A DNA stretch of 64,000 nucleotides from a virus. Lineage: Duplodnaviria; Caudoviricetes. A program made the translations under genes and the position numbers. Shown one piece after another: positions 6,727 to 64,000 of the stretch. How positions within the stretch are numbered: the stretch's first letter is position 1; each line of letters opens with the position of its first letter. The DNA lies in IMG/VR virus record IMGVR_UViG_3300034272_001608, positions 2,105-66,104 of that record; one strand, given 5' to 3'. The notes beneath the pieces were generated by a model. The model was not told where the DNA came from. It saw only the letters and a list, made by a program, of their open reading frames with translations, and did no database searches.

Positions 6727-6743
6727 GTCTTCTTATTTAATTT

Positions 6744-6750
6744 ATAAATA
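6744..6750 (-). promoter_or_regulatory. Representative copy of recurrent TATTTAT phage promoter-like motif
   Basis: The same 7-mer lies on the sense strand upstream of about 18 genes. This copy shares the longer context TAAACTATTTATAAA with the copy at 15418-15424. Confidence 0.7.
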
Positions 6751-6769
6751 GTTTAGTTCCCTTTTTCAA

Positions 6770-7861: not shown

Positions 7862-8688
7862 TATTGCGGTGGATTTACATATTCATACCATTTTATGGGT
7901 ATATTGGTACCCAACCTCTGACCGTACGTATTAAAAACTTGGTAAGTTTGTTTTTCATAATCTAATTTAACGGTGTAGTAAAAATACTGTGTATTATCAA
8001 AAGCATACTTATTACCCAAGTAAACCTGTGGACCATTTGTTAAATCTATTGGGTTACTTCCTCTACCTGTCATCATTTTTGTAAACTGACCTGTTTTAGC
8101 GTTGTAAAATTTGGCGGTCATGTAAAATGTACTGACATCCAAAAAGTTTCTTTTCTTCAACCAATAAATAAAAAACCCTTCTTTATCACCAACATAATCC
8201 AAAACAAATTGTGGTTTTCTTATATTCACCAAAGTTCTTTGCATTTGAGCTTGCATCATTAAACCTTGTTGAGTTGGTAATATAATTGTAAGATAGTTTG
8301 TTTGTTGTTTTTCGTCAGGAGTATCATAAAAGTCTAACTTAAAAAATGAGTTTGAAAAATTATTTTCATAGTAATAAACTTCTTGTGGTGTGAATCCCTC
8401 ACTAAGGTAATTAACTCTCCAATTTCCAATATTATCTAACGAGCCGCCAGAATAAAAATAAAACTCATAGTTAATTAAAGTATCGTTTGTTGTCCCTGTT
8501 GCAGGAGCATGGGCAAATCTTGAGATTTCAAAATCTCTACCTCTACCAATTACTTCATCAATAATTCTGGTTTCATATTCGTCAATAGACATGTCTAACC
8601 CCAAGTAATCCCACTTAAGTTCAACAGGTATATTGATTTGTTTATCAACAATGCCGTCTTGTCTAATCGTAAATTTATTCACACTCAT
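7861..8688 (-). CDS. Hypothetical virion structural protein
   Basis: 275-aa aromatic-rich ORF overlapping its neighbours in the structural operon. Confidence 0.55.
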   Translation of the reverse strand: MSVNKFTIRQDGIVDKQINIPVELKWDYLGLDMSIDEYETRIIDEVIGRGRDFEISRFAHAPATGTTNDTLINYEFYFYSGGSLDNIGNWRVNYLSEGFTPQEVYYYENNFSNSFFKLDFYDTPDEKQQTNYLTIILPTQQGLMMQAQMQRTLVNIRKPQFVLDYVGDKEGFFIYWLKKRNFLDVSTFYMTAKFYNAKTGQFTKMMTGRGSNPIDLTNGPQVYLGNKYAFDNTQYFYYTVKLDYEKQTYQVFNTYGQRLGTNIPIKWYEYVNPPQ

Positions 8689-15401: not shown

Positions 15402-15497
15402 GTAATGTCTTTAGTTTATAAATAGTTTATGTGTACTTTTTAAAGTATGGATACACACATTATAAATTATAAACCAAACCCTCAGAGAATAAACCTA

Positions 15498-46600: not shown

Positions 46601-46869
46601 GATTGTTGTAGATAAGATTTGGCGATGTACGCCGCTTCGTATTTAGGGATTTGTGTATTAACAAATTTTGTAGGTTCTGTTCCCCCAAAATATGCTTGAA
46701 ACTCATCGTAATTTGTGATAAATATAGGTTCGAAAGCGGGACCTTTAATTGTTTCCCCTACCAATCCTAATGTAGTTACACCCACACTCTGAGCAACAAA
46801 TGATAAGTCGGTTTCAGACGTGTATACTCCAGGTGATACATATACCTTTTGATTTACTTGTGTTGCCAT
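43669..46869 (-). CDS. Contractile tail sheath protein (T4 gp18-like), enlarged
   Basis: SPGVYTSETD, G.T.KGPAFEP, PWFASAGYTRG, INPI, WGNKTL, LNVRRLL, FEQND, IYLKPTKALEFI. Confidence 0.95.
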   Translation of the reverse strand: MATQVNQKVYVSPGVYTSETDLSFVAQSVGVTTLGLVGETIKGPAFEPIFITNYDEFQAYFGGTEPTKFVNTQIPKYEAAYIAKSYLQQSNQLFVTRILGLSGYDAGPSWSIKVTANVDPLTIGTNPSTGSPFIAEFSGTSSGNTFIFTSGSLPGPVTVNLNNQYRLSDGSTSSLSLDFTTNLDSVMDDPSLSATTAVVYGSIPETDYDNLSLSYSNIVNEYGVESVNLTSNDLSSDNNDPWYYANFDITSGNAYSGYSFYYVVSNLVSLGNGNYTGTITGNSYVYSGTAYTDYNNMVIATLRSRGISLYSNSTETDLHGPVYEVSGLTDLQMVCTEQYSGVTQLPFETFLLSGVTKDGDNFSFETSMSAASSKYITKVLGIDNFGKSRNEVPVYVEEIYPGSLNYAYNQGYIRGLSCDLIALEGARSQDPQSIAYNVTQYKSPSTPFLVSELRGNKVYNLFKFISISDGDAANTEVKVSIANLSFNNMTFDVLVRNFFDTDANPVVIEKFTNCNMDPGSNNFVAKKIGSSNGEYALVSRYIMVEMADEAPIDAIPCGFYGYTQREYASVLNPSPVPQFKTKYYYPGETIYNPPFGSAANATESAGDIIRRSYLGFSSQFGIDDSFLQYKGTQNPSNWVASALPVDGTPWNYLSKGFHMDSGATVCTISNSFLTSGETAFECGVANFTRDPETQENPYYFIYSRKYTVCFAGGFDGWDIYRESRTNLDRFQLGSTGYLAGASVSARYPTATGQGLFKRIVVQNNTQDFANTDYYAYLLGILTFANPESTNINVFATSAIDYVNNSNLVEEAIDMVQYSRADSVYIATTPDYLMFTPDGTNSLDIIYPQEAVDNLDNTGIDSNYTATYYPWILVRDTVNNTQIYLPPTGEVCRNLALTDNIAFPWFASAGYTRGLVNSIKARTKLTQEDRDTLYQGRINPIATFSDVGTVIWGNKTLQVADTALNRLNVRRLLLQARKLISAVAVRLLFEQNDQIVRQQFLDSVNPILDSIRRDRGLYDFRVTVSSTPEDLDRNTLTGKIYLKPTKALEFIDIEFFITPTGASFENI

Positions 46870-51072: not shown

Positions 51073-52626
51073 ATGAATAATCCAAAGATGAATAAAATAG
51101 AAGAAAAGATTCAACAACTCGAGACACAAATTGTAGAACAAAAAGTGACAAGAGAAAAAGAGTTGTTAATCACAGAAATGAAAAAAATCGGAATAGAGAA
51201 ATTACCCTATTCTTACTCAGCCCTGAAACAGTTCATTGACCAAGAGACGATGGACTTCCACTACAACAAACATTACAAGGGGTATGTAGACAAGTTAAAC
51301 GCCGCTTTAGCCAAGAAAAAATACGGAGACTTAGAGTTAGAACAGATAATCAAAACAATCAGTCGTTTTGATAAAACAATTAGAAATAATGCTGGTGGTG
51401 CATTTAACCACGCGTTATTTTGGAACATGTTAACCCCACAACCAAAAAAACTTCAAGGGGAATTATATAAGAAAATCACAAAAGAGTTTGGAAGTTTTCC
51501 AGCATTTAAGAAAAAGTTTGAGACAATTGCCAAAGACAGATTTGGGTCAGGTTGGGTTTGGTTGGTATTAACCGCAAAGAACGGTCTTAAAATTATGTCT
51601 ACACCAAACCAAGACAATCCATTGATGAATGTTATTGAAGGTGGTGGGTTTCCTCTTTTAGGTTTGGACCTTTGGGAACACGCATACTATTTGAAGTATA
51701 GAAACAAAAGGGACGAATACATTACAAACTTTTGGAAAGTTGTTAACTGGGATTTTGTTTCTAAATTATATGAAATGAAAACCGAAACAAAACTTTTAGA
51801 GTCGGTTGAAATGGCAAAAATAATAACCGAATCAAAGGAGGCTGAATTTTGTGATAACAAAGAAGTTCAGTTCTACAGAGAATTAATTAACAATCCAAAA
51901 ATTAAAAGAGTATACCAAGACGGGGTTACCAGTGTATTAAAACAAGTGTTTCACCAATTTTGGGTTGAAAGTACCAACGAAGAAATGTCAGGTTTCTATG
52001 GTGTTGAATCTAAAGAAGGAAGGTCAATATTAAATAACCTAAACACAAACTTCAACGCATTCTGTTTGTTAACCAAAGCGGTGAACAATCAAATTGAGAA
52101 CATAGGAAAACCTGAAAAGAAATTTGATTTTAGTAAAAAAGAAAAAAGAAACATAAGTGAGGTTGCCAGATTAATTAAAGCTTTAGACCATTTCAAGAAA
52201 GATATTTTTACAAAAAACAATCAAGATTTTATAAACATAATTAAAGTTTTAAAAAAACTTTGGGATAGAGGACAAAAGTCAGAAGACGATGTGTCGTCAA
52301 AAATTACAAAATATTTTGGTTCAGAATCTTCTGTTGAAAAGATTAGTGGTCACGGAGAAAAAAACGATGCGTTTAAAGGAATTGATTTAATTGTGAATAT
52401 TGGTGAAAGAAAATACACCGCACAAGTTAAACCGTTTTCTAATATGAAAAACGAAGATGGTAAAATAACTGTATATGATACGGGTAACGTAAAACCATAC
52501 AACGTAAATTGGTTGATATTTATTAACACGAAATCTAATAAGATTTTAATTTTTGAAAATAATCCAGTGAAGGACCACCATCAATATGTGTTTGATGAAT
52601 CGTCTTTAATACACGAAATAGAATAA
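51073..52626 (+). CDS. sodA: Mn-type superoxide dismutase fused to a C-terminal PD-(D/E)xK nuclease-like domain
   Basis: LPYSYSAL, HYNKH..Y, NNAGG.FNH.LFW, FGSGWVWL, NQD, DLWEHAYY; extra ~280 aa with ND...GIDL...TAQVKP. Confidence 0.85.
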   Translation: MNNPKMNKIEEKIQQLETQIVEQKVTREKELLITEMKKIGIEKLPYSYSALKQFIDQETMDFHYNKHYKGYVDKLNAALAKKKYGDLELEQIIKTISRFDKTIRNNAGGAFNHALFWNMLTPQPKKLQGELYKKITKEFGSFPAFKKKFETIAKDRFGSGWVWLVLTAKNGLKIMSTPNQDNPLMNVIEGGGFPLLGLDLWEHAYYLKYRNKRDEYITNFWKVVNWDFVSKLYEMKTETKLLESVEMAKIITESKEAEFCDNKEVQFYRELINNPKIKRVYQDGVTSVLKQVFHQFWVESTNEEMSGFYGVESKEGRSILNNLNTNFNAFCLLTKAVNNQIENIGKPEKKFDFSKKEKRNISEVARLIKALDHFKKDIFTKNNQDFINIIKVLKKLWDRGQKSEDDVSSKITKYFGSESSVEKISGHGEKNDAFKGIDLIVNIGERKYTAQVKPFSNMKNEDGKITVYDTGNVKPYNVNWLIFINTKSNKILIFENNPVKDHHQYVFDESSLIHEIE

Positions 52627-53776: not shown

Positions 53777-54112
53777 ATGGCAATAGTAAAATCGATACCT
53801 TCAAGAAGAATTATCAACGGGGTGTCAATCAATACATCAGAAATATCTGTAGTTTCAGAATTAGATTATAGAACACAAGGTGAAAGTTGTGTAATTATTA
53901 GAGGTGTTACACAATCTTTTGTAACATTAGATTCATCAACTACTGACCACATTGTTGTTAAATCAATGACAAACCTCACCATAAGACCTGATGTCGGTAA
54001 AATCGACGAGGAATATGATGAGGTTGTTGTAGATAAGTTTGCTTGTATTGAATTTAGATTTGTTGGTGGAAACTGGTATATCCTTTCATCCGACGGACTT
54101 AAACAGTCATAA
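53777..54112 (+). CDS. Small beta-rich structural (collar/fibre-associated) protein
   Basis: IVVK....LTI.P..G.ID...F.GGNWYI pattern found in fibre/collar domains; follows the neck gene. Confidence 0.55.
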   Translation: MAIVKSIPSRRIINGVSINTSEISVVSELDYRTQGESCVIIRGVTQSFVTLDSSTTDHIVVKSMTNLTIRPDVGKIDEEYDEVVVDKFACIEFRFVGGNWYILSSDGLKQS

Positions 54113-56822
54113 GTTTTTGTTCCCAACCTTCTTCAGCTAACTCATACATATAATGAGGGTCAAGTCCTCTTTTCTCCCAATATTTAAGTTCTTGCTCTGT
54201 AATATCTAATACGTCTTTTTGTAAATCGTCTTGGTCTCCTTGTCCTAATGGATGTCCATTTATTAATTCACATTGAGCCGCAGTAAATATACCACGTTTT
54301 TCAGGGTCGGCAACAATAAGTCCATTTCTAACATCGTCTTTAAATACAACCATAAGAGGTTCAATTCTTTTATTGAAGGTAACAACCGCTCTTGGTACAT
54401 TATAATCACCAGTCAAATTAGGGTCATTGTCTAATATATCTTTATCTAACATATAACAGTTAAGTTGTACACCATCCCCTTTCTTTTGTACATCCCCATG
54501 AGATGCCTTAAGTCCATTGTTAACATACATTATAACGTCACCCAAATTAACATTTAAATTGTTTTCTATTGCAAGTTCCATGTGTGCCATTCTTGACATA
54601 CTATTACCTGATTTAGTTTTTGTATTCAAACGTTTCTTGTAGTCATCAAGAGATAATTTAACTTTAGCTCGCTGTGCAATCTTGGATAGCGGTATTTGTT
54701 TATCAAAAATCTTTTGTAGGTATTCATAATAATATTCGACAAATTCTTTACCCTCACCCTTTAACAACATCTTAATACCCTTATCAAGGAACTCCTCAAT
54801 ATAGATTGGAAGTTTCTTAGATTTAATACTATTACCTGTTAGTTTAATTTTACCCTTGGCATCCATAACCGCATAGTTCTTACGAGCCAAGTTAATACAT
54901 GAAGGCCAAACACCGTCGGTGTCCAAAGCCATTTCACCCCTCATGAATATATCGTTGTACTCTGCAACATCTGCCTCAGGGCCATAATATTCTTTACCTA
55001 ATTTAACTTTCCAATTCAATCCACGACCAACATACACTCTGTCTTTAGCTTCAGGTGGTGTCGAGAAGTTCACACCGTCCGTATCCATAACCAATGGAAC
55101 ATATCCTTTGGTCATAAAGAATCTAATCATTTGTCTAAGGTATTGTCTACCTGTACAAGTAATCTGTTCACCCATATACATGTCACCCCAAGCATAAACC
55201 TGTGGGGCGGATAATGCACCGAACATAGAGTTGATAAAGATTTTGATAGGTAATTGTTTATTACCGTATGATTCTGATTTCTTCTTATCAATCGTATAGA
55301 ATTCTTCCGCAAGGTTCTTGTATTTGATACGAGTATCACGGAACCATTTTAACATTCCCTTCATCGCACCCGTAACATCACAGTCAGGGAAAACGTCGTG
55401 TACTAATTGAATAGAGGGGTATAGAGACGAAAAGTCGAGCTTAAGTACGTCTTTACTATATCCAACCTTAAGTAGTCTAGAAAGACCTCCTACGAAGTCT
55501 GTTTTTGATTCTTTCGCAGGTATTGCAAGGCTATGTTTATAAGACCACGCCAACATCAACATTTTCCATAATGTTGCGGTACCCATTGTTGAAACCCTTT
55601 CATATGTTGTTGGAATCATCGCAGCCAACAAGAATGAACCTTGGTTGAATTCTGAGTCAACCTTAAGGGTTTCATCTAAGTCATCATCAAGATATCTCTC
55701 AACAAGATTGTCTCCTGTGGTTTTAAGATATACGTCGGTTCTATTCTCACAGATTGCATCAATCTTTGGGTCCTGTCCAACCTTACGGTAGTTACCGTTT
55801 TGAGTATTTAACCAAAACTCTTCTTTCTTAGTATAGAACGGACCAATGTCTAAGTGGTCAATGTAAACTCGGTCAGGTGCTTCGGCATTAATAAATTGTG
55901 TAATGTATTTCAAACCCGCAGATTTAATACTTGAATTAATTGCTTGAGCTCTACGAACCGCGTGAATAATATCAATAACGTTATAACCCCAAATAGAAGT
56001 TTGAGTATATGGCTCAACTTCGTTTGCAAGTTTCAACATACTCTCTTTTCTTGTAAACGAATGTTGTGGATGTAATGATTTACAAATCTTTTTAGGGTCA
56101 ATATTCAAAATAGAACATCTTTCAAATATCCAATGCCAGTCAAAGTTTGCCGAGTTATAACCACCAATAATACTTGGTTTTAGTTGGTCTATAATATCAA
56201 AAAATTCTATGATAGCGCCACGTTCCTGTGACTCATCAATACATTCAATAACTTTATGATACCCTTTATTTGTTTTGATTCCAATCATGAATATACGACC
56301 GTCTTTTGGTTCCAACGAGGTCGTCTCCAAGTCAAACACCAATCGGGTAACTTGATTATAATCTTCAAATCCTTTGAATAATCTTTTTTCTTTTGAAATA
56401 AGGTATTGTTCTACGGGAGGTAGAATCATAACTTTATCTTTAGTCCTTTCCCCCCAAGGGTCACAACCACCTTCTCTAAAAAACTGTACTAATTCACGAT
56501 AACCTTTTAAAGACTTAACCATAAATGTTAAACCTTTTTCTAATCTTTCGTTGTCGTAAGTTTGTAGTTTTTCAATCATGATACCATGTTTGGTCATGGC
56601 TTCTTTCTGAGCGGCTTTGGAACCACCATAGAAATTAATATCTCGTAAATCACCAACCCAAGCAAATGGAGTAAATGTGTCTTTACGGATTTCTTTTCCC
56701 TTACCTGGGATTTCCTTAACTTTAAAAATGGAGTTTGATGCATAGTCGAACTCAATGGCGACTATAAATTCTTCAGGGTCGTTTCCGTGTAGGAACGATT
56801 CAATTTCTTGTTCTGTAAACAT
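54099..56822 (-). CDS. polB: Family B DNA polymerase with 3'-5' exonuclease
   Basis: ExoI FDLETT, ExoII YNSANFD, ExoIII YLDDD; PolA DFSSLYPS, PolB K...NSMFG, PolC MDTDG, KNY. Confidence 0.93.
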   Translation of the reverse strand: MFTEQEIESFLHGNDPEEFIVAIEFDYASNSIFKVKEIPGKGKEIRKDTFTPFAWVGDLRDINFYGGSKAAQKEAMTKHGIMIEKLQTYDNERLEKGLTFMVKSLKGYRELVQFFREGGCDPWGERTKDKVMILPPVEQYLISKEKRLFKGFEDYNQVTRLVFDLETTSLEPKDGRIFMIGIKTNKGYHKVIECIDESQERGAIIEFFDIIDQLKPSIIGGYNSANFDWHWIFERCSILNIDPKKICKSLHPQHSFTRKESMLKLANEVEPYTQTSIWGYNVIDIIHAVRRAQAINSSIKSAGLKYITQFINAEAPDRVYIDHLDIGPFYTKKEEFWLNTQNGNYRKVGQDPKIDAICENRTDVYLKTTGDNLVERYLDDDLDETLKVDSEFNQGSFLLAAMIPTTYERVSTMGTATLWKMLMLAWSYKHSLAIPAKESKTDFVGGLSRLLKVGYSKDVLKLDFSSLYPSIQLVHDVFPDCDVTGAMKGMLKWFRDTRIKYKNLAEEFYTIDKKKSESYGNKQLPIKIFINSMFGALSAPQVYAWGDMYMGEQITCTGRQYLRQMIRFFMTKGYVPLVMDTDGVNFSTPPEAKDRVYVGRGLNWKVKLGKEYYGPEADVAEYNDIFMRGEMALDTDGVWPSCINLARKNYAVMDAKGKIKLTGNSIKSKKLPIYIEEFLDKGIKMLLKGEGKEFVEYYYEYLQKIFDKQIPLSKIAQRAKVKLSLDDYKKRLNTKTKSGNSMSRMAHMELAIENNLNVNLGDVIMYVNNGLKASHGDVQKKGDGVQLNCYMLDKDILDNDPNLTGDYNVPRAVVTFNKRIEPLMVVFKDDVRNGLIVADPEKRGIFTAAQCELINGHPLGQGDQDDLQKDVLDITEQELKYWEKRGLDPHYMYELAEEGWEQKLMTV

Positions 56823-56892
56823 ATTTCGTATACGAGTGGTTTATTGGCTTTCACACTGTCGTGAAATTTACCTTCCTCATCGTATATAAATA
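56823..56892 (-). promoter_or_regulatory. TATTTAT motif plus structured 5' leader of polB
   Basis: Inner hairpin TTTCAC-6nt-GTGAAA (56849-56866), GAG..GGT/ACC.CTC outer pairing, TATACGA/TCGTATA stem; motif at 56886-56892. Confidence 0.5.
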
Positions 56893-56918
56893 TTAAACAA
56901 AATTTTTGAGTAATCAAA

Positions 56919-57296
56919 TTAGCAACAAGCAGTTTCTGAAATAAAACTATCTTGGATGTTGATATAAAGTTCTTCTCTAATTGGTAAAATTAAATTTCCT
57001 TCGTCGTTCTTAATTAAGAATTGTCCTTGGTATCTACCAGGGGTGTTTGTATCTCTTGCAGTAAACTTGAAATAAATGTAATACTCAGGAGCCGCACCCA
57101 ATGGTAGGATTAAATTCACGATTTCACATGGGGCAGAGACAATTTTAGGAATTCCTGTTTCCACGTCAATCATAGTAAAAAATATTGTGGAAACTTCCAG
57201 GTCCTCCATAAGTTGTTGGTACCCAGCTCTTCCATCTTTTACAACCTGCATTTTTAACACAGGAAGAGTTGCATTCTTCTTAATATAAAATTCCAT
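56919..57296 (-). CDS. BppU-N-like Ig/beta-sandwich structural protein
   Basis: FYIKKN.TLP.L...Y.F...DT..PG.Y.G.F.I...LP....L.I.I pattern. Confidence 0.6.
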   Translation of the reverse strand: MEFYIKKNATLPVLKMQVVKDGRAGYQQLMEDLEVSTIFFTMIDVETGIPKIVSAPCEIVNLILPLGAAPEYYIYFKFTARDTNTPGRYQGQFLIKNDEGNLILPIREELYINIQDSFISETACC

Positions 57297-57312
57297 AACA
57301 ATAAATATACTG

Positions 57313-58989
57313 TTATGACTCTTTACGAAGGTCTCTACTATAATGTTCGAATCTATCGTGTTCTGTTGGCGTTAGAAGTAATAAACCAGGATACAATTCG
57401 TCTTTCTTTACAAGTTGATACATATGACTCATCCATGTCTGTTCAAACGGATGTGCCCATGTTGTATCTAAAAACATTTTTTGATTTCCTATTCTACTAA
57501 CAATCTGAGGCCAGTTACAGTAATAAACTTCACCAATAGCATATGGTAATCCTTTGTGAGATAAAACTGCGTGGAATTCTGTTTTTGGAGCATTAGGGTC
57601 TAACCCCATTTCAGGTAATCTATTTTTACCTGGCCAAAACTCTTCTCTCACATGTTGAGGTACGTTATACCAAGACCATTGTGTTCCGTTGTCACCATAA
57701 AACTCACTATAGTTTAACTTTAAAAAATCAAAGTTTTCTTTTTTAATAATATCTAACGATTTAGTATATAAGTTTGGAACATATCTATTAAATCCGTTTC
57801 TACAAACAGACCCTTCGTTAGGATAAAAGAACATGTCGTCTTCAAAGAAAAGGTAATAATCTAAATCGGTTTCTTTTTGAAAATGTTCTGCAATCCATTG
57901 TCTACCACCACAAATACCTAAGTTATCTTTTTTGATGTGTTCAAAATCAAACTCTTCACAGATTTGCTTATACTCTTCGGTTGTCGATAAATCACTTGAG
58001 TTATCCAATAAAAACTTTTTTGTTTTATAAACATAGTCCTTGTCGTAGGCAATCATTGAATCAATTAAAGTTCTAAACTGTTTTGGACTATTAAATGTTA
58101 TAACATACAACCCAACCTTATTTGTGTCTAAAGAGTTATCAACTTTAATAGTGTTTTCATTTTTAACTTTAAGGGAATCGTTTTTTAAATCTTCAAAAAA
58201 CCTTCCAACCAATCCATTAGACTCTATTTCAAAATAATTAATTAAGTCAGAATGTTTGTAACACATAATACTGAATATAGATTCTTCAGTTCCCATATAT
58301 CCATCATCTAAAGTACTTTTAAGTAATCCATAATAGATTCCGTTCATATCCCCAATAGTATGTTTAGGTCCTCCAAAAAATCCACCTCGGGCAACTTTAT
58401 TAACCTTAGCTCCCGCCAAAGAATTTAATTTGTTATATTCAAAACCATGAATTTCTTTTTCAGCACCATAAGGAAAACATATGAATGAGAATTTAGAAAT
58501 ATATTTTGATAGGTTATCTAAAACTTTATCGTGAGTAAAATAACCAGGGTGAACAGTATTGGTTAATCCTCCGTCAATCCAAAACATATATTCGGAGTTG
58601 AACTGGTCCATGATTTTTGCATCGTGTAACAAAAACATTTTTGACATTACAAGGGGATTATAATTTTCTAATCTTGCTTGTGTGGATTCTTTTAACCAAC
58701 CAACTTGGTCATACCAATTAGAATTAGTCCTAATCTTTTGTATCATTGGAAAAAACTCAGAATTAGTAAACCAACTTAATGGTCTTGTAATAAACTGCGT
58801 GTTTTCTGAAGTTCTATGTTTGAATACAAATTCTTTTAATTCTTCATCTCCAAATACAATAAGGTTCTCTTCAACCTTTAACAGTTGTTCAAACTTATCC
58901 AAATAATGTTGAAAAGACCTACTCCATCCTTCAGTCAATTCTCCTCTACCAATATCCCAAATACCTGTTACTAAAGTTATGTTACTCAT
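57313..58989 (-). CDS. Two-domain glycosyltransferase: HtrL/YibB-like plus GT-A (GT2-like)
   Basis: N-terminal ITLVTGIWDIGR, FWIDGG, RGGFFGG, GTEES; C-terminal YVITFNSP, LLDNS, NLGI.GGR, FFEDD. Confidence 0.75.
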   Translation of the reverse strand: MSNITLVTGIWDIGRGELTEGWSRSFQHYLDKFEQLLKVEENLIVFGDEELKEFVFKHRTSENTQFITRPLSWFTNSEFFPMIQKIRTNSNWYDQVGWLKESTQARLENYNPLVMSKMFLLHDAKIMDQFNSEYMFWIDGGLTNTVHPGYFTHDKVLDNLSKYISKFSFICFPYGAEKEIHGFEYNKLNSLAGAKVNKVARGGFFGGPKHTIGDMNGIYYGLLKSTLDDGYMGTEESIFSIMCYKHSDLINYFEIESNGLVGRFFEDLKNDSLKVKNENTIKVDNSLDTNKVGLYVITFNSPKQFRTLIDSMIAYDKDYVYKTKKFLLDNSSDLSTTEEYKQICEEFDFEHIKKDNLGICGGRQWIAEHFQKETDLDYYLFFEDDMFFYPNEGSVCRNGFNRYVPNLYTKSLDIIKKENFDFLKLNYSEFYGDNGTQWSWYNVPQHVREEFWPGKNRLPEMGLDPNAPKTEFHAVLSHKGLPYAIGEVYYCNWPQIVSRIGNQKMFLDTTWAHPFEQTWMSHMYQLVKKDELYPGLLLLTPTEHDRFEHYSRDLRKES

Positions 58990-59863
58990 ATATTCTATTA
59001 AATTCTTCTAATATTTTATAAAAACTTTTATTTTGTTGAAACAACTCTTCGGATGTTCCTCTTGGCGCATTATCTCTGCACCACCATATATCAAAATGCT
59101 TTCTTTCAAAAAGTTCTTTATGGTTATAAAACATGAGGGTCATAATGTGTTCTTCATGTGGTATACCTTTATCTTCATTTATAATTTTCTCTACATAATC
59201 TTCAAATAAAGAAACAACTTCGTCCCACTTACTTTTGTGACCTCCAAAAAGACCACCAATTATATGAAGTCCTCTATCGTATTCTTTATACCATTTTCTA
59301 TCCACAGTACCAGACCAATAATTTCTATCGTTTTCTTTACCAAGAATTAAAAATTTGTCACCAGTATCTTCAATTACATTATTTAAAAAATTGTTGTTGA
59401 ATAATGAACTTTCATAATACCTTTTAACCAAACCATTATCAGTAAGATATTTTAATGGTATTAATCCACAATGTGATAAACCAGCATCAATCCAATAATA
59501 ATAGTCATAAGATTTATCCTCATTCCACCACCAGTGAAATTTGGAATATTGAATCTCGATACATCTATCAGATTTTTTAGTTTCATCAATATTTTTATAC
59601 TGATTAATCAAATCTTTAAACTTAGTTTGAGATATATCAAATACCTGAAACTTAAGTTTTTCAGGTGAAATATTATTTTCATTATAGAAAAACTCAATCA
59701 AAGAATCTAATTCTCTGTCTGAGGTATAACACAGAAAATCTGCGTCCGTCATTTTTAACAACGATAATAAACTGTATCTGTAGTGGCCTCCTCTATTAAC
59801 TCTACCCCCATATTCGGTACCATAAAGGTCACTATAGATTGATGTGATGAATTTAATTGACAT
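58982..59863 (-). CDS. HtrL/YibB-like putative glycosyltransferase
   Basis: KFITSIY, YSKF, YWIDAG, IGGLFGG, HEE motifs parallel the N-terminal domain of the downstream gene. Confidence 0.65.
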   Translation of the reverse strand: MSIKFITSIYSDLYGTEYGGRVNRGGHYRYSLLSLLKMTDADFLCYTSDRELDSLIEFFYNENNISPEKLKFQVFDISQTKFKDLINQYKNIDETKKSDRCIEIQYSKFHWWWNEDKSYDYYYWIDAGLSHCGLIPLKYLTDNGLVKRYYESSLFNNNFLNNVIEDTGDKFLILGKENDRNYWSGTVDRKWYKEYDRGLHIIGGLFGGHKSKWDEVVSLFEDYVEKIINEDKGIPHEEHIMTLMFYNHKELFERKHFDIWWCRDNAPRGTSEELFQQNKSFYKILEEFNRIYE

Positions 59864-60599
59864 AGTAAAATTTATGATGTTCGTTTTTGTCTTTCATTTC
59901 TTGAACTTTATATTGGTCCATAAACTCATTTGGTATTTTTCGTGGACACCACCTGTTCCAGTTATAAGTTTGCATGTACCAATTATTATATACTCCTTCA
60001 GATATGTTTGAGTAGTTTGTTTTTTGTGGTGCGATAGGCAAAACAGGACAATAACTTTGATGTTTTTGTACTATGAACCTATACGTATAATCATCTAAAG
60101 CAAAATAATATTCTCCACTTGTTGTGAACGCGGTTAGTGAAATATCAAATATTGTATCATAGATTGACTCATCATAGATTACCATATTAGCACCATAAAT
60201 TCCTCTACTTTCTTCGGGTGCTTCAGGAGTATTTGTCATATCAAATAACAAGTCATGTTTATCGCTAACATTGATTGGTCTATTTTGAGTTGGGCCCAAA
60301 TTAAACATTGCAAATTTTAAGTCAGGACAATCATTTTCTATTTGTTCTAATAAATCTTTAGAATACGGCATAAACCCGCAGTCATCTTCAATAATCATAA
60401 CTCTTGGGTACCCTCTTTCTTTTGCAATTTTAATAACTTCAAAAGTTGATTTAGTAATACCCATGTAAGAATTTGTATCTATTGCCGAAAACCTTTCAAA
60501 GTCCCAACCAATATATTCCATTTCTTTTGTTATGGATTCCAGTCTGTCGGGTCTTCTATCAAGATTTATAACAAATTTTGGTATTTCTGAAAACTTCAT
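59853..60599 (-). CDS. Glycosyltransferase family 25-like
   Basis: FVINLDRRPDR, F.RFSAID, MIIEDD, late D..., Q...YS.I motifs of GT25 (LgtB/Lex2-type). Confidence 0.8.
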   Translation of the reverse strand: MKFSEIPKFVINLDRRPDRLESITKEMEYIGWDFERFSAIDTNSYMGITKSTFEVIKIAKERGYPRVMIIEDDCGFMPYSKDLLEQIENDCPDLKFAMFNLGPTQNRPINVSDKHDLLFDMTNTPEAPEESRGIYGANMVIYDESIYDTIFDISLTAFTTSGEYYFALDDYTYRFIVQKHQSYCPVLPIAPQKTNYSNISEGVYNNWYMQTYNWNRWCPRKIPNEFMDQYKVQEMKDKNEHHKFYYVN

Positions 60600-61861
60600 T
60601 AACTAACGTGATTGTGATTTAGTTGACCAGTTAATCTGTCACACCATCCTTTAGATTCTGAGTGTGGCCAAACAACCCAATATGACGGTAACATTGTTGT
60701 TGGAAACTCTCTCCAAACTTTACAATACTTATCAGGGTCTCTCATAAATCCAGCAATCTCATTCTTGTCGGCATCTTTTCTATATAAAGTTTCATCATTT
60801 GGACCATGGAATGCAACTACCCAAAAATCATAATCTGTTTCAGGAACACTTGAATAACCAACATCAATACAATGTTTGTAGATAGTAGAGAAACTGTTTT
60901 TCCATTCTGTCTCGTCTTCAATAACGGGACTTGGTGGATATTTCTTATCCAAACAATGTTGGTCTACCGCTCTTTTTTCAAATAACAAACCTGAATATCT
61001 TTCATATTCTTGAAGAGTACGAACAGTTCCGAAACCAAATGGACCTTCATGACCCTCTTGAGTTTCTCCATCCATTCCAAATAATTTTCTATTTGTTAAA
61101 TGAGAATGTTTGTTTTTATCTCCCCATGTTTTGTCGTCATCCCACTGTTTGGTTCTACCCTTACGAGTGTACTCATGGTAAACCACAGGCATATGTGGAT
61201 GGAATAAATCATAACCCCATGTGTAAGCTCTTGCCGCAATTGAAATCTCTTCTCCGTGGAAATAATATTCAGGGTTATGTTGAACTTCGGTTGAGAACTC
61301 ACCTAATGTAAAACAAAAGTGGGCAGAATAGAATCTTGACGGAACAGGTTTTGTCATTTCTCTCCAACCTGGAATTGTTTCAGGTAAAAAGAATACCGCA
61401 CCTTCAGGAATAAACCTATCAAACGCCATTCTCCAAGCATCTGTTGCTCTTCCCGCTGGGTCATTTTCGGGGTCAAAAGATGGGACATAACCCGTAAGTA
61501 GAGGTTTCTTATGCCCATCTTTTTGAAGCCCCTTAATCATTTTAATTAACACATCATCCCAATCCTTAATGAACCTCATGTGAGAATCAATTTGAAGTGT
61601 GTATGTTTCTCCGTCATAAAGTTGTTGTGTTAGGTTTCTTGCCCAACAAACTCCTTTGGCTTCTTCATATGGGATATTTAAAATTTTAAAACGTTTGTCG
61701 TTTCTAAACTCGTCTAAATTATCGAATCCATCGGATTCACTGAATTGTCTTGCAATTGCAAAAACCAAGTTCTTAGGTTTCTTTGCATTTGCAATCATGT
61801 CTTTTATGGTTGGAACTAACTGAGGGTCCCTGTAAGATGCGATTTGAATAAAAATTTTCAT
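60599..61861 (-). CDS. GT60-like polypeptide alpha-HexNAc (GlcNAc) transferase with extra C-terminal domain
   Basis: IFIQIASYRD, AKGVCWAR, LQIDSHMRF..WD (DxH), FHGEE, H.Y.R; signature of the Gnt1/Gnt2 (Pfam GlcNAc) family. Confidence 0.85.
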   Translation of the reverse strand: MKIFIQIASYRDPQLVPTIKDMIANAKKPKNLVFAIARQFSESDGFDNLDEFRNDKRFKILNIPYEEAKGVCWARNLTQQLYDGETYTLQIDSHMRFIKDWDDVLIKMIKGLQKDGHKKPLLTGYVPSFDPENDPAGRATDAWRMAFDRFIPEGAVFFLPETIPGWREMTKPVPSRFYSAHFCFTLGEFSTEVQHNPEYYFHGEEISIAARAYTWGYDLFHPHMPVVYHEYTRKGRTKQWDDDKTWGDKNKHSHLTNRKLFGMDGETQEGHEGPFGFGTVRTLQEYERYSGLLFEKRAVDQHCLDKKYPPSPVIEDETEWKNSFSTIYKHCIDVGYSSVPETDYDFWVVAFHGPNDETLYRKDADKNEIAGFMRDPDKYCKVWREFPTTMLPSYWVVWPHSESKGWCDRLTGQLNHNHVS

Positions 61862-61930
61862 TTAAAATATATTTTGTTATAAAAATAAAAAACCCTCCAC
61901 AAAAGTAGAGGGTTTTATTTATATTATTTT
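61857..61930. repeat. 74-bp direct repeat, copy 1 (terminator plus glycosyltransferase start)
   Basis: 70/74 identical to 63454-63527 by manual alignment. Confidence 0.9.
61881..61916 (-). terminator. Intrinsic terminator after mucin-like gene
   Basis: Minus strand AAAACCCTCTAC-tttt-GTGGAGGGTTTT plus U tract; a G-U pair closes only on the minus strand. Confidence 0.8.
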
Positions 61931-61938
61931 TTTTAATT

Positions 61939-63363
61939 TTAAACACAACCGTTAGGGTCTGATGAAGTAATTTGTCCTGCTCCACCTGTTACTTGGTACC
62001 AAGCGGTTCCATTAGAATAGAATCCATTAGGAACTACATCTGTAAGAGGTCTTCCAGTGGTTTCGTATAAGTATTCACCTATGTTAGGTCCTACACCACC
62101 TGCAACTGAACCATAGATTGTTTGTGGAGAAGCTGAGAATGCTAAACAAGCGTCGTTAGCCGTTGCACCTGTACCTAAACTATATGTATACCATGCAAAT
62201 GTTGATGTTGGAGTTTGAGTTGCAGTATTTGTTGGAGTTTGTGTTGGAGTTTCTGTTGGTGTGTTGGTTGGAGTTTCAGTTTGAGTAATTGTTGGTGTTG
62301 GAGTTGGTAATAATGAACAAAGTGTATAACCACCCGTTTCAAAACCTCCTGAAGTTAATTGTACAACATCTGAACCATTACTATAGAATCCTGCCAAATC
62401 AATTGTAACAATTCCTGACGGGTCATTATAGAATTGAGAATTTTCGTTGAATATTGCCGTAAATGCATATAATGTTACCGATACTCCCGCCTCACAAGCC
62501 TCATTAGAAGTTGTTCCTGAGAACACATTAAATGATTGAAGTGGTGATGTTGGAGTTGGGGTTGGAGTTGCGGTTAATGTTGATGTTGGTGTTACTGTTG
62601 GTGTGCTAGTCGGAGTTGCTGTTGGTGAAGGACATACTGTAGTTCCAATAACGGTTGCACCCGATAAACATCCTGTTGGACCATCACAATCACTTAGCTG
62701 GTAAGTTATTCCATCAACATTATAAAATCCAACAGCATTACCTGTATTACCTTCAGAACTTGACCAGAATAAAGTTGATGATGCAAAAAGTGGATTATTT
62801 CCAAAAAGAGTTGAAGTGTCTACACAACCACAAGCTTCAAGAGGGTCTACCTCACTTTTACAAACACTATTAAACTGATATCTCACAACATTTGTTGGTG
62901 TTGGAGTGTTAGTTGCCGTTACACTAGGTGTTGGAGTTAGAGTTGTGGTTGAGCTAGGGGTTGGTGTATTAGTTGGAGTTTCTGTTTGCGTGTTAGTTGG
63001 TGTGGGTGTTGGAGTACCTGTTTCCGTGTTAGTTGGAGTTGGAGTATTAGTTGCCGTATTAGTTGGAGTTGGAGTATTAGTTGCCGTAACACTTGGTGTT
63101 GGCGTATTTGTTGGGGTAGCAGAAGGTGTTTGCGTCGGAGTTGGAGTTATCGCAACTGGAGGAAACACTCCTTGATTTACTAATGAAATTACGTTTTTAA
63201 ATGATGGTGCAATTGTATAAGTACCATTAATTACCCAAATATTTTTTCTTTGATTTGGTGTAAGCTCAACTTGATAATCCCATAATGCATCGTCACATCT
63301 TTGGTAACTAAAATTTACGGTAGTTGAACCCGTATTTGTAAGTGTATATTTGCTACATGCCAT
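61939..63363 (-). CDS. Mucin-like Thr/Pro-linker protein with three Cys-bracketed beta domains (putative virion decoration)
   Basis: Three (TP)n tracts (about 85, 30 and 35 aa), each followed by an AC...T.(Y/F)...GFY..G...Q...C domain. Confidence 0.8.
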
Positions 63364-63453
63364 CTTATTTCTTATTTATCTAATAAATACTAAGATTTTG
63401 GCTAATTTATTCAAGAAGAGTAAAAAAATATTTTTTGTTAAAAGTTAAATATC

Positions 63454-63527
63454 TTCATTTAAAATGTATTTTGTAATAAAAATAAAAAACCCTCCACGAA
63501 AGTAGAGGGTTTTAGTTATATTATTTT
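63454..63527. repeat. 74-bp direct repeat, copy 2 (terminator plus dead ATG remnant MKIFNF*)
   Basis: 70/74 identical to 61857-61930; includes the same terminator hairpin. Confidence 0.9.
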
Positions 63528-63534
63528 AATTTTA

Positions 63535-64000
63535 TTAATCAGTAAAAATGATTTCTATCAAGTCACTTTCCGAATATGGAGAACTAAATTCGTAATTTTG
63601 CGTTAGGGGTAGAGGACCCGAGAAACCTGGAGAAATTTGAGAACCATTAGCACTGATATACATTTGGAAATTTCCTGTTCCTGCCATAATAACATTTATG
63701 GTTGTACCGCTAACGATATTTTCATGGAACGCGTTTCTAGTTGTACCACTTGTTATTGGGTAACCGCCAACGGGACCAAGTACAGGAATTGTTCCACTAA
63801 TTCCTGAAATTTCTTTATCACCAGTTGCAGTATTCACGAATCGGAAATTTCTATATTCAGTTGGTGATGGTGTTAGAGTATTTGTTGGAGTTAGAGTATT
63901 TGTTGGTGTTTGAGTAATTGTTGGTGTATCTGTAGGTGTTTCTGTTGGTGTTTGAGTATTTGTTGGAGTTGGTGTTAAAGTATTTGCTGGGGTTGAAGTA
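63535..64000 (-). CDS. Partial (3' end) mucin-like Thr/Pro-linker protein
   Basis: Frame is open past the ORF-track start to the window edge: [23 protein letters not shown]...SPTEYRNFRFVNTATG. Confidence 0.8.
   Translation of the reverse strand, partial: TSTPANTLTPTPTNTQTPTETPTDTPTITQTPTNTLTPTNTLTPSPTEYRNFRFVNTATGDKEISGISGTIPVLGPVGGYPITSGTTRNAFHENIVSGTTINVIMAGTGNFQMYISANGSQISPGFSGPLPLTQNYEFSSPYSESDLIEIIFTD

Follow-up and report, generated by a model that had tools for sequence, protein, structure and literature searches.

A GT60-led glycosyltransferase row beside Thr/Pro-tract genes in a jumbo phage: a candidate system for glycosylation of phage proteins

Gene Layout of the Locus

The locus described here belongs to an uncultured jumbo phage with a genome of ~320 kb that is common among lake metagenomes. 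The window, namely the whole stretch of 64,000 nucleotides that was analyzed, lies within a 66-kb fragment of this phage and contains the following features:

1-257, minus strand: start of the third Thr/Pro-tract gene, which runs off the window start
696-2831: SprB-repeat protein
15498-17336: baseplate wedge
43669-46869: tail sheath
56919-57296, minus strand: 125-aa ORF, no family match
57313-58989, minus strand: 558-aa two-domain GT-A enzyme
58982-59863, minus strand: 293-aa HtrL-like GT-A paralog
59853-60599, minus strand: 248-aa GT25-like glycosyltransferase
60599-61861, minus strand: 420-aa GT60-like (PF11397) glycosyltransferase
61889-61916, minus strand: terminator-like hairpin (12-bp stem and T run) between the 474-aa and GT60 genes
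61939-63363, minus strand: 474-aa Thr/Pro-tract protein with three tracts
63486-63513, minus strand: near-identical terminator-like hairpin, 3' of the incomplete Thr/Pro gene
63535-64000, minus strand: second Thr/Pro-tract gene, C-terminal 154 aa; the contig end falls within the tract

The sequence-only reading had recognized four overlapping glycosyltransferase (GT) genes at this locus. The arrangement on the minus strand is confirmed, the adjoining genes (57313-61861) overlapping by 8, 11 and 1 bases, and Pfam, hhalign and profile matches confirm the family assignments. The 125-aa ORF, for which family searches gave no match, lies between this row and, in close relatives, the gene of a family-B DNA polymerase; it is found in 75 of 80 close loci with 63-97% identity, and the other five loci stop short of its position. 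Neither a membrane-like segment nor a signal-like N-terminus is present in the four enzymes and two Thr/Pro proteins, in which the maximal 19-residue hydropathy does not exceed 1.04. The earlier statement that nucleotide-sugar genes are lacking in the window holds for the part covered by the 19 further ORFs that we scanned, among which none was found. Complete relatives encode many nucleotide-sugar enzymes, which casts doubt on the accompanying idea that the host supplies the sugar donors; in one of these relatives, many such genes lie just past the point matching the end of this contig.

All three Thr/Pro-tract genes noticed before are real, including the one starting at 257. In the contig the latter encodes 552 aa, of which 332 form a tract containing 150 Thr, 64 Pro and 19 Ser, and it sits at the distal end of the row of tail and baseplate genes. 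The second gene is incomplete because the contig stops where the window does. Scanning all six frames of the window revealed Thr/Pro tracts only in 61939-63363 (three) and 63535-63999. The 474-aa protein has four small Cys-containing globular domains and three Thr/Pro linkers (residues 66-160, 247-282 and 364-392); its N-terminal domain recurs in 66 of 80 close loci, the remaining domains in 24-47 of 80, and ESM Atlas matches of the C-terminal domain are viral clusters only. We propose that this protein is fibre-like and a candidate acceptor of glycans.

A strong terminator-like hairpin follows each of the Thr/Pro genes at 61939-63363 and 63535-end, so that these genes and the enzymes do not form one operon and their co-transcription is unsupported; judging from the sequence, the Thr/Pro genes would be separate transcription units. 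Enzymes and putative scaffolds are thus encoded together as neighbours, as had been claimed, but not within a shared operon (hairpins 61916-61889 and 63513-63486). After the 63486-63513 hairpin, the initial codons of the GT60 gene are found once more, a duplication resembling a scar left by cassette insertion.

The GT60-like Lead Enzyme

The 420-aa protein encoded by the first gene of the row matches PF11397 ('GlcNAc') with an E value of 3.7e-66 and 224 bits (cut-off 21), and phrog_24687 with an E value of 8.9e-163. No PDB chain was matched in a sequence-level search. When its AlphaFold model (pLDDT 90.7) was compared with the PDB by Foldseek, every one of the top 24 hits was a GT27 polypeptide GalNAc-transferase (E 9.5e-11 to 7e-9, TMq 0.43-0.53), the best being 6nqt (E 9.5e-11, TMq 0.51). 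These results uphold the earlier GT60 assignment, with membership in the polypeptide alpha-GlcNAc-transferase family PF11397 and a fold nearest to that of mucin-type polypeptide GalNAc-transferases. The protein shares with GT27 enzymes a DxH-type motif, D92-S93-H94, which is invariant in the family alignment of 31 sequences, and a build of catalytic domain (GT-A) plus beta-rich C-terminal extension (about residues 325-413; roughly 120 aa). It differs from them in its predicted cytoplasmic location, GT27 enzymes, the initiators of mucin-type O-glycans in animals, residing in the Golgi.

According to PMC8724618, the GT60 family of CAZy comprises polypeptide alpha-GlcNAc-transferases related to GT27. 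PF11397 is common to the phage protein and the known members, namely Dictyostelium Gnt1 (acting on Skp1-Hyp) and Gnt2 (acting on mucin-type repeats) and Trypanosoma cruzi OGNT2. In the Skp1 branch, by the same account, the enzymes are soluble and cytosolic, and Gal- and Fuc-transferases and a bifunctional di-glycosyltransferase act after them. The 420-aa enzyme is likewise predicted to be soluble, and the phage row has Gal-type, two-domain and (in relatives) Fuc-type enzymes after GT60. The peptide KPPTTTTTTTTKPP, reported in PMC3769586 to be accepted by the T. cruzi enzyme, is Thr/Pro-rich like the candidate phage acceptors. In contrast with the known GT60 enzymes, the phage protein is viral and has the extra beta-rich C-terminal extension, and its donor, anomer and acceptor are putative. 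We propose that it is the initiating polypeptide HexNAc-transferase of the row.

The Other Enzymes of the Row

The match of the 248-aa protein to PF01755 (GT25) has an E value of 8e-9 and is limited to residues 7-44. Its family profile retrieved from the PDB 9crz, which is Mimivirus R655 (E 5.9e-5), and, weakly, COLGALT1 (E 0.04-0.08); residues E71-D72-D73 are invariant. This proposed extender is encoded by the most variable gene of the row, with 48-91% identity in close loci and absence or replacement in some. The 293-aa protein gave no match in a Pfam search, yet its family aligns by hhalign with the HtrL half of the 558-aa family (96.2%, E 2.2e-9), the motifs WIDxG, GGxFGG and EE being common to it and the N-terminal domain of the 558-aa protein.

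Residues 3-252 of the 558-aa protein match PF09612 (HtrL_YibB) with an E value of 5.8e-23. Its AlphaFold model (pLDDT 94.8) has two domains, an HtrL_YibB-like one (1-275) and a GT2-like one containing F382-E-D-D385 (290-558), and the best Foldseek matches are LH3 (1.3e-12), LARGE1 (5.2e-10), K4CP (8.2e-10), COLGALT1 (9.5e-9) and PmHS2 (1.5e-7). All these proteins also carry two GT-A domains per chain, but the likeness is in fold only (TM 0.24-0.28), and sequence searches with the 558-aa enzyme returned no match to bifunctional tandem GT-A enzymes. Because the model is bipartite and most resembles tandem GT-A enzymes in the PDB, the 'five catalytic domains' counted in the row by the sequence-only reading are supported as five GT-A folds, their catalytic activity being predicted. 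A polymerase activity of the 558-aa enzyme would be speculative on the basis of such a model.

Association of GT60 with Thr/Pro Tracts

A Thr/Pro tract lies on the same strand within 2.5 kb upstream of GT60 in 71/71 evaluable close loci, that is, those with at least 1 kb of upstream sequence (nine of the 80 were too short and omitted). Tract density near GT60 in close loci is 72 aa/kb upstream versus 0.13 aa/kb downstream. The adjacency recurs in clades having GT60 proteins 54-72% identical to that of the window, in which none of the 474-aa protein's globular domains was found (0/80 loci); what accompanies GT60 is hence the tract rather than a single conserved gene. The adjacency is also clade-specific: with clustering at 80% identity it occurs in 13 of 44 evaluable GT60 clusters, with clustering at 70% in 4 of 14, and it is absent from one large clade (2/32 loci) and the XacN1-like group.

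Tracts of the (TP)3T type are present in 10/10 complete GT60-bearing genomes or records versus 0/5 GT60-lacking jumbo phages, a contrast between phylogenetically non-independent genomes (G001 and G003 are near-identical) and controls of our own choice. The reversed pattern produced no match in any of these 15 genomes or records (10 with tracts, 5 without), indicating that the tracts are not due to chance. Among 45 viral records with Thr/Pro tracts, six have PF11397 and 39 lack GT60; PF11397 is found in 0/4 of the records that are at least 90% complete. Hence, the co-occurrence and synteny expected from the earlier reading are borne out by the close loci and complete genomes, but not by most GT60 clusters, and tracts are common without GT60. 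Tracts of this kind might simply act as flexible linkers.

The Xanthomonas jumbo phage XacN1, a relative available in culture, retains the core of GT60 (ORF334, 45% identity), HtrL-like protein (ORF332, 30% identity to the 293-aa protein) and tandem GT-A enzyme (ORF330, 42% identity to the 558-aa protein). It differs from our phage in that a carbamoyltransferase replaces GT25, no Thr/Pro gene adjoins the row and the DNA polymerase is unrelated. No Thr/Pro tract was found closer than about 9 kb to its GT60 gene; its Thr/Pro-tract ORFs are 232-237, 325 and 384, which the text of the XacN1 paper (PMC5852040) does not mention. XacN1 virions contain 'at least two glycoproteins', for which ORF328 and ORF334 were proposed as the enzymes (Yoshikawa 2018, PMC5852040), neither enzyme family nor acceptors being named in that text. 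Glycosylation of virion proteins by a phage GT of this family is an idea raised in 2018 for XacN1.

Variable Cassette and Sugar Islands in Relatives

The row of relatives has conserved ends, GT60 being first and the tandem GT-A enzyme last, with GT10, GT11, GT7C-like, RXYLT1_C-like, FkbM and other methyltransferases in between. Relatives also possess large islands of nucleotide-sugar genes in which no membrane proteins are encoded. In the complete relative G002, a block of four fibre-like genes separates the GT row from a sugar island of 23 kb; Thr/Pro tracts occur in three of them (811, 187 and 334 aa), the fourth being a collagen-repeat gene (794 aa). The island encodes two epimerase/dehydratases, a UDP-Glc/GDP-Man dehydrogenase, a DegT aminotransferase, GT10, GT11 and a GT2+GT4 fusion. 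No ORF with at least two membrane-like segments was found in the glyco regions of G002, which thus offer no candidate for a flippase, polymerase or polyprenyl-phosphate transferase. Genes of PF13640 are present elsewhere in G001 and G002 and absent from G004, G007 and XacN1, and no prolyl hydroxylase was found linked to the GT60 row.

Possible Function of the Row

The presence of a GT60-led enzyme row beside Thr/Pro-rich, fibre-like genes suggests that the phage probably glycosylates, or sugar-coats, its own proteins, a capacity demonstrated or suggested in few phages only. The specific reading that we tentatively favour is that the row constitutes a cytoplasmic, phage-encoded protein O-glycosylation module acting on Thr/Pro fibre-like proteins. 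The soluble GT60-type enzyme would transfer the first HexNAc, most likely GlcNAc, from a UDP-sugar to a putative protein acceptor, the target being Thr in the Thr/Pro linkers of phage fibre-like proteins and, less likely, Ser or hydroxyproline. The glycan would then be extended by the GT25-like, HtrL-like GT-A and two-domain GT-A enzymes, and the decorated proteins would probably be fibres exposed on the virion. Since relatives have fucosyl-, galactosyl- and methyl-transferases in place of the central part of the row, the glycan would vary by strain.

The glycosylated proteins of mycobacteriophages are reportedly capsid and tail-tube subunits, modified by enzymes said to belong to other GT families; that system is not known to include GT60 or Thr/Pro mucin-like proteins. 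It resembles the proposed module in that phage-encoded GTs put glycans on virion proteins, as papers citing Freeman et al. 2023 state. The subunits modified there accord with an alternative that we consider rather unlikely, in which the phage glycosylates its capsid, sheath, collagen-like or other structural proteins while the tracts are nearby plain linkers. XacN1, with virion glycoproteins and yet no tract near GT60, fits this alternative, as do the many GT60 clades missing an adjoining tract, the frequency of tracts without GT60 and the collagen-repeat protein in the fibre-like block of G002, the GT25 family including collagen galactosyltransferases. It is harder to reconcile with an adjacency that is invariable in the clade of the window and recurs where the neighbours have no common globular domain, with the presence of tracts in every GT60-bearing genome, and with the preference of known GT60/GT27 enzymes for Thr/Pro-rich unstructured acceptors.

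HtrL/YibB belongs to the LPS-core locus of E. coli, and GT25, GT10 and GT11 are typical of LPS/LOS synthesis, building LOS or Lewis antigens. The row could accordingly modify a glycan of the infected host's envelope (LPS/LOS, capsule or exopolysaccharide), with superinfection exclusion or altered adsorption as examples of what this might achieve, a reading that we regard as doubtful. GT clusters of jumbo phages and cyanophages have been read as remodelling host outer polysaccharides (Iyer et al. 2021, PMC7824862); these clusters are similarly polymorphic and combine several GT families with nucleotide-sugar enzymes. The variable cassette, akin to O-antigen diversity, and the large sugar islands fit the same picture. 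However, our row is led by a polypeptide-type initiator, is linked to fibre-like genes, beside which the module keeps, and has no membrane components: the glyco regions of G002 lack any polyprenyl-phosphate transferase, flippase, polymerase, ligase or multi-membrane-segment protein. Moreover, the ever-conserved first enzyme comes from a family in which all characterised members act on polypeptides, and its structural neighbours are polypeptide transferases.

Sugar hypermodification of phage DNA, for which T-even phages and YerA41 with its oligosaccharide-like thymidine adduct are models, would account for the position of the row beside the family-B DNA polymerase gene, but is very unlikely. 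It could draw on weak PHROG matches to 'beta-glucosyl-HMC-alpha-glucosyltransferase' (E 7e-4 and 2e-3) and on the precedent of YerA41, where several GT genes accompany a base modification that is bulky and glycan-like (PMC9023294). Against it, the sole thymidylate-synthase-family gene of complete relatives scores above the cut-off of the thyA equivalog (311 vs 108 bits), leaving no hydroxymethylase candidate; the lack of a Tet/JBP match is a weak point, since the control was silent too. In XacN1, the DNA was mapped by BssHII, NaeI and SpeI digests and the polymerase gene is 5 kb off with other genes intervening. A methylated, fucosylated glycan made by many enzymes also differs from known DNA sugars, and the GT60/GT27 fold indicates peptide acceptors. 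The synthesis of an oligo- or polysaccharide that stays free or is secreted, or glycosylation of a host protein, with the tandem GT-A enzyme as a polymerase similar to the bifunctional LARGE1, K4CP and PmHS2, is highly improbable, considering the low TM-scores (0.24-0.28), the absence of export machinery from the G002 glyco regions and the fact that no GT60 initiator would be needed.

The favoured reading of a module that glycosylates the phage's own fibre-like proteins has a parallel in giant viruses, such as Mimivirus with its fibrils and chloroviruses with their capsid, which combine virus-encoded nucleotide-sugar synthesis with many GTs. They also have collagen-like proteins, with a phage counterpart in the fibre-like block of G002, and Mimivirus R655 is the protein matched by the GT25-like profile, whereas the source here is a tailed bacteriophage. 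Of note, PF11397-like folds are present also in Megaviridae and Pandoravirus.

A Glycosyltransferase Row Led by a GT60 Enzyme

The window carries four glycosyltransferase genes that overlap head to tail, all on the minus strand, next to genes with long Thr/Pro tracts. This arrangement, first noticed from the sequence only, is confirmed by our analysis and extends to relatives of the phage. We interpret the row tentatively, as a reading falling a little short of probable, as a phage-encoded, cytoplasmic system that is initiated by GT60 and O-glycosylates Thr/Pro-rich, fibre-like phage proteins; that the acceptor of the row is a protein of some kind we consider rather probable.

Glycosyltransferase genes of the row
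60599-61861, minus strand: 420-aa GT60 enzyme (PF11397, E 3.7e-66)
59853-60599, minus strand: 248-aa GT25-like protein (PF01755, N-terminus only)
58982-59863, minus strand: 293-aa HtrL-like protein (no Pfam match; hhalign)
57313-58989, minus strand: 558-aa tandem GT-A protein (PF09612 at residues 3-252, E 5.8e-23)

The assignment of the lead enzyme to GT60 is upheld by both its profile match and its modelled fold. The match to PF11397 scores 224.4 bits (cut-off 21) and covers positions 2-43 and 94-351 of the 352 in the profile, while residues D92, S93 and H94, which we take to be the metal-binding DxH motif known from GT27 and GT60, are invariant across an alignment of 31 sequences that are 44-81% identical to the window protein. 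Comparison with the PDB by sequence and profile gave no usable match. The AlphaFold model (pLDDT 90.7), in which a C-terminal extension at about residues 325-413 is beta-rich, has its nearest PDB folds in Foldseek among the GT27 polypeptide GalNAc-transferases: ranks 1-24 (E 9.5e-11 to 7e-9, TMq 0.43-0.53) are exclusively chains of GalNAc-T1, T2, T4, T7, T10, T12, PGANT9 and Toxoplasma GalNAc-T3, followed by TarS, GlfT2, RmlT, K4CP and SpsA. Among predicted viral structures, the nearest are proteins of uncultured tailed phages named 'Glycosyltransferase, GlcNAc' (E 5.1e-27), and the next are proteins of Megaviridae and Pandoravirus. Relatives of the protein number more than 7,000 in a large protein collection, those among the best 120 matches listed being 72-95% identical, without names and uninformative as to function, and at least 553 GT60 loci are present in IMG/VR.

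In the sections of the literature dealing with these enzymes, CAZy GT60 comprises polypeptide alpha-GlcNAc-transferases akin to GT27 and without the ricin-like domain, and its Skp1 branch involves soluble cytosolic enzymes that add GlcNAc, Gal and Fuc, with two steps combined in one bifunctional protein (PMC8724618); the part of a further report that concerns the T. cruzi enzyme gives its assay substrate as KPPTTTTTTTTKPP (PMC3769586).

The remaining enzymes of the row are assigned with varying depth. The 248-aa protein matches PF01755 with 36.1 bits (cut-off 24) over residues 7-44 just, and a profile built from 14 GT25-like relatives, in whose family alignment an EDD motif is invariant, reaches Mimivirus R655 (PDB 9crz, E 5.9e-5) and, weakly, human COLGALT1 (E 0.04-0.08). 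The 293-aa protein, for which Pfam gave no match, is tied by hhalign alone (96.2%, E 2.2e-9) to the HtrL domain of the 558-aa protein. The latter scores 82.3 bits against HtrL_YibB (PF09612, cut-off 24.1), and was rejected as an equivalog of E. coli YibB, its 86 bits lying below the NCBIfam cut-off of 264.9 (TIGR02192); by these profile scores it is a member of the HtrL_YibB family and no YibB ortholog. A representative search returned 912 relatives, and both halves of the protein also exist as separate proteins. Its AlphaFold model (pLDDT 94.8, from an alignment of 46 sequences) has two domains, and the best PDB matches are the two-GT-A enzymes LH3, LARGE1, K4CP, COLGALT1 and PmHS2 (E 1.3e-12 to 1.5e-7), with TM values to such tandem enzymes of merely 0.24-0.28; sequence and profile searches of the PDB with this protein gave no usable match. 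Structure prediction, proposed by the sequence-only reading as a check, therefore bears that reading out at both ends of the row, with GT27 nearest to the first enzyme and two GT-A domains in the last. Of its claim of five catalytic domains in four genes, the five GT-A folds stand as models and catalysis itself stays predicted. No membrane-like segment or signal-like start was detected in the four enzymes and the two Thr/Pro proteins tested.

Thr/Pro-Rich Genes and a Putative Cassette Scar

The Thr/Pro genes adjoining the row, and the third that starts at 257, are all real. Within the window, tracts occur solely in 61939-63363 (474-aa protein) and 63535-63999; the gene starting at 257, at the end of the row of tail genes, encodes 552 aa, of which 332 form a tract (150 Thr, 64 Pro and 19 Ser). 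Tract length varies from 29 to 332 residues and the (T+P+S) fraction from 0.66 to 0.72, as in the Ser/Thr/Pro-rich, repetitive acceptor domains of mucin-type systems; the tracts are candidate acceptors. Tandem Repeats Finder detects periodic repeats of 12-42 bases in every tract; these probably break assemblies, and counts of Thr/Pro genes in fragmentary viral contigs are thus likely too low.

Depending on the domain, 24-66 loci of the close set of 80 described below encode the globular parts of the 474-aa protein, the N-terminal domain being the most conserved and the distal ones varying, and no locus of a divergent set of 80 does; the neighbours of GT60 in distant clades therefore share the tract and no detectable domain. 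This pattern, the location of the 552-aa gene beside tail genes and the virion glycoproteins of XacN1 (see below) are indirect hints that the Thr/Pro proteins may be part of the virion. The C-terminal domain matches viral clusters only in the ESM Atlas, one of them with Peptidase_S74 on 45% of its members, but all scores are below 0.9 and the match is thus a lead only. In lake metatranscriptome contigs (four RNA-library runs, compared with window 56800-63999), pieces of the 474-aa gene were found without difference in 4/4 runs and parts of the glycosyltransferase genes in 2/4; since DNA can be present in RNA libraries such contigs are no proof of expression, and uncovered stretches carry no information.

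Two near-identical terminator-like hairpins with 12-bp stems follow the Thr/Pro genes, each 3' of a stop codon.

Repeated hairpin region
63440-63513 and 61861-61916, minus strand: hairpin and following bases, a repeat that includes a copy of the GT60 start ATGAARATWTTT

Behind both hairpins the sequence is alike and repeats the opening codons of GT60. By its sequence, the duplicated region has the look of a scar from insertion of a fibre-gene cassette ahead of GT60, and the layout argues against a single operon and for repeated recombination at this place. A promoter scan performed no better than chance, with 28 found against 31.6 expected from shuffles.

Association of GT60 with Thr/Pro Tracts

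To describe the neighbourhood of GT60 we used two sets of loci. The close set comprises 80 loci with GT60 identity of 84-95%, of which 9 are too short upstream and 71 are evaluable (at least 1 kb). The usual order in these 80 loci is Thr/Pro gene, GT60, GT25-like, HtrL-like, tandem GT-A, ORF125 and DNA polymerase, and a same-strand Thr/Pro tract lies within 2.5 kb upstream of GT60 in 71/71 evaluable loci, tract density being 72 aa/kb upstream versus 0.13 aa/kb downstream. The second set consists of 80 loci picked for their likeness to XacN1, a cultured Xanthomonas jumbo phage, with 41-72% identity to the window GT60. When all 160 GT60 sequences are clustered at 80% identity, a tract is adjacent in 13 of the 44 evaluable clusters and present somewhere in the locus in 26 of 46; at 70% identity the corresponding figures are 4/14 and 9/15. 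Adjacency follows clades: 21/21 loci at 54-60% identity have it, 2/32 at 58-66%, and none in the XacN1-like groups.

At the level of genomes, the pattern (TP)3T is present in 10/10 complete GT60-bearing genomes or records (3-16 matches each, reversed control 0) and in 0/5 GT60-lacking jumbo phages (RaK2, Atu_ph07, SCTP-2, phiKZ and 121Q, all without a PF11397 match), a contrast in which the controls were chosen by us and the ten positives are interrelated, G001 and G003 being nearly the same. Conversely, a (TP)4T scan gave at least 120 stretches, and 45 records from the first 50 of 80 listed loci were searched for PF11397, which was found in 6/45, including 4/6 contigs of at least 100 kb and 0/4 records at least 90% complete. 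Tracts are therefore widespread without GT60, yet present in every GT60 genome examined. The synteny and co-occurrence proposed as a check are thus borne out for the close loci (71/71) and the complete genomes (10/10), but not across clusters (13/44), and tracts are common where GT60 is lacking. The mucin-type reading of the virion is partly supported: it draws on the enzyme families, folds and neighbourhood and is weakened by an adjacency limited to some clades.

The clades without adjacency, together with the gene layout of XacN1, agree with a serious alternative, namely that the row glycosylates proteins at sites other than Thr/Pro tracts; the adjacency in every evaluable close locus agrees better with the tracts themselves. 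The XacN1 protein ORF334 is a 45% identical homolog of the window GT60. The portions of the XacN1 paper bearing on this report glycoproteins in the virions, their identities unnamed there, and propose that phage glycosyltransferases including ORF334 are responsible (Yoshikawa 2018, PMC5852040).

Variable Cassettes and Sugar-Gene Islands in Relatives

The middle of the row differs in several close relatives, where five to seven other genes take its place or are added to it, among them GT10, GT11, GT7C/GT2-like, RXYLT1_C-like, FkbM and other methyltransferases, and in one arrangement the tandem enzyme carries a fused methyltransferase; in XacN1, Xoo-sp13 and RAS14 a carbamoyltransferase occupies the middle. 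The ends are constant, with GT60 first and the tandem GT-A enzyme last, a pattern that fits the fixed start, variable middle and fixed late step of an exposed, diversifying glycan.

The complete relative G002 (326,291 bases) has nine ORFs with Thr/Pro tracts, three of them less than 7 kb upstream of GT60 and four at 295-303 kb. The same-direction proteins upstream of its GT60 have 334, 187, 794 and 811 aa. That of 794 aa (97544-99928, or 5885-8269 of its stretch L013) contains collagen-type Gly-Ser/Thr-Ser repeats (Pfam Collagen, E 6.6e-23) and matches tail-fibre PHROGs, mostly across Gly-Ser/Thr-rich repeat regions; lying between Thr/Pro genes, it is a candidate for a second kind of glycan carrier. 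In the second Thr/Pro group, 298606-300030 encodes a 474-aa protein with a small N-terminal domain, short Thr/Pro tracts and about eight 'NGSIDNTFN.GTGFN'-type repeats that appear beta-propeller-like by eye.

Sugar-gene rows of G002
102444-125856, opposite to the fibre-like genes: row 1, 23 kb, tightly packed on one strand
308820-326291 and 1-26594, one strand: row 2, at the genome ends

Of the approximately 75 genes in both rows, 20 were scanned. In row 1, the 10 scanned of about 26 comprise 7 sugar genes (two epimerase/dehydratases, a UDP-Glc/GDP-Man dehydrogenase, a DegT aminotransferase, GT11, GT10 and a GT2_5+GT4 fusion), a PolB-type exonuclease and 2 without match; row 2 contains DegT, dehydrogenase, epimerase, radical-SAM and carbamoyltransferase genes. 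PF01370 has 8 matches in G002 and 2 in G001, another relative. The sugar-handling complement is thus much larger than the four genes of the window, which form one edge of it, and sugar donors need not come from the host, as had been suggested, since G002 encodes many nucleotide-sugar enzymes itself. Row 2 also includes a 751-aa protein (314056-316311, or 14056-16311 of its stretch L100) with two Hint/intein-type modules (PT-HINT E 1.3e-20, AXH E 3.6e-19, Intein_splicing E 1.7e-12). Genes for PF13640 2OG-Fe(II) oxygenases, of the prolyl-hydroxylase superfamily, number three each in G001 and G002, none near the GT60 row, and none was found in G004, G007 or XacN1; hydroxyproline as acceptor is a minor option, under which these oxygenases could be relevant.

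These islands also bear on host-envelope remodelling, the reading given to such glycosyltransferase clusters in the pertinent part of the literature (PMC7824862). It agrees with the LPS-type families, but a polypeptide-type lead enzyme does not fit it and the membrane machinery is missing from the glyco regions of G002, where a hydropathy scan of 408 ORFs found none with two or more membrane-like segments and hence no sign of the membrane initiating transferase, flippase, polymerase or ABC exporter of an Und-P-dependent LPS or capsule pathway. Glycosylation of DNA by the row, for which YerA41 offers a precedent, ranks low, because the sole TS-family gene scores as thyA and indicates no hydroxymethyl-pyrimidine route, no TET/JBP match was obtained (with a control that was silent too), and XacN1 DNA was cut by BssHII, NaeI and SpeI in the mapping digests described in its paper (PMC5852040), which speaks against bulky base modification there.

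Proposed Pathway and Significance

If the acceptors are the Thr/Pro-rich proteins, dense O-glycans on their mucin-like tracts, and possibly also on collagen-like repeats rich in Ser/Thr, would be initiated by the GT60 polypeptide GlcNAc-transferase; Gal, Fuc and methyl groups would come from strain-specific cassettes, and the LARGE/K4CP-like tandem GT-A enzyme might polymerise a repeating disaccharide into a proteoglycan-like brush supplied with nucleotide sugars by phage-encoded pathways. The fullest version, in which an abundant clade of lake jumbo phages gives its own fibres a eukaryote-style glycoprotein coat, polymerised brush included, made wholly within the bacterial cytoplasm, and phages form a large, diversifying reservoir of GT60/GT27 'mucin-initiation' enzymes that would bear on the origin of that family, we regard as unlikely.

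Virion glycosylation is well documented for giant viruses; in phages, to our knowledge, it is known only for some mycobacteriophages and hinted for XacN1. Glycosylation of virions is thus already known in both, and the idea for this very enzyme was raised by the XacN1 authors. In the literature on phage GT60, virion glycoproteins, O-glycosylation and XacN1 we found no description of a GT60-led system with Thr/Pro acceptors, one phage paper merely listing GT60 among viral auxiliary genes. What is notable here is the combination of a GT60/GT27-type initiator, mucin-like candidate acceptors, a swap-in cassette and the abundance of the clade. Were the reading correct, widespread uncultured lake jumbo phages would devote tens of kilobases to making sugars and attaching them to their own fibres, beginning with an enzyme of the family that initiates mucin-type glycosylation in protists. 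It would also bear on host adsorption, resistance to proteases or grazers, attachment to particles and the fast variation of fibre genes and sugar cassettes, and would provide a compact, soluble system of the bacterial cytoplasm for O-glycans on Thr/Pro peptides. The case further cautions against automatic annotation of such clusters as 'host LPS modification'.

Source Phage and Other Genes of the Window

The window, with a GC content of 34%, is a piece of an uncultured jumbo phage. It encodes a tail sheath, baseplate wedge, ribonucleotide reductase, DnaB-like and SNF2 helicases and a family-B DNA polymerase, and complete relatives have genomes of 317-326 kb. The parent contig has 66,104 bases (CheckV completeness 21%), of which the window takes 2105-66104; window and contig therefore end at the same base, which falls within a Thr/Pro tract (63847-64000). 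Megablast of 54099-64000 showed no DNA similarity to isolated phages, and in tblastn the DNA polymerase matched phages of Salinibacter and Dolichospermum at only 24-25%; by these comparisons no cultured close relative exists. In 15 DNA runs labelled lake water metagenome, 81-96% of sampled words of 57313-63999 are present.

Just upstream of the 552-aa Thr/Pro gene, the product of 696-2831 (minus strand; 711 aa) contains SprB repeats (E 1.1e-21) and has a weak Hoc-like match; it is likely a surface adhesin-type virion protein, and the repeats give a weak hint of a Bacteroidota host. On the plus strand, 51073-52626 encodes a 517-aa fusion in which an entire Fe/Mn superoxide dismutase (Sod_Fe_N E 1e-22, Sod_Fe_C E 4e-40) is joined to a C-terminal region of about 280 aa without a family match.
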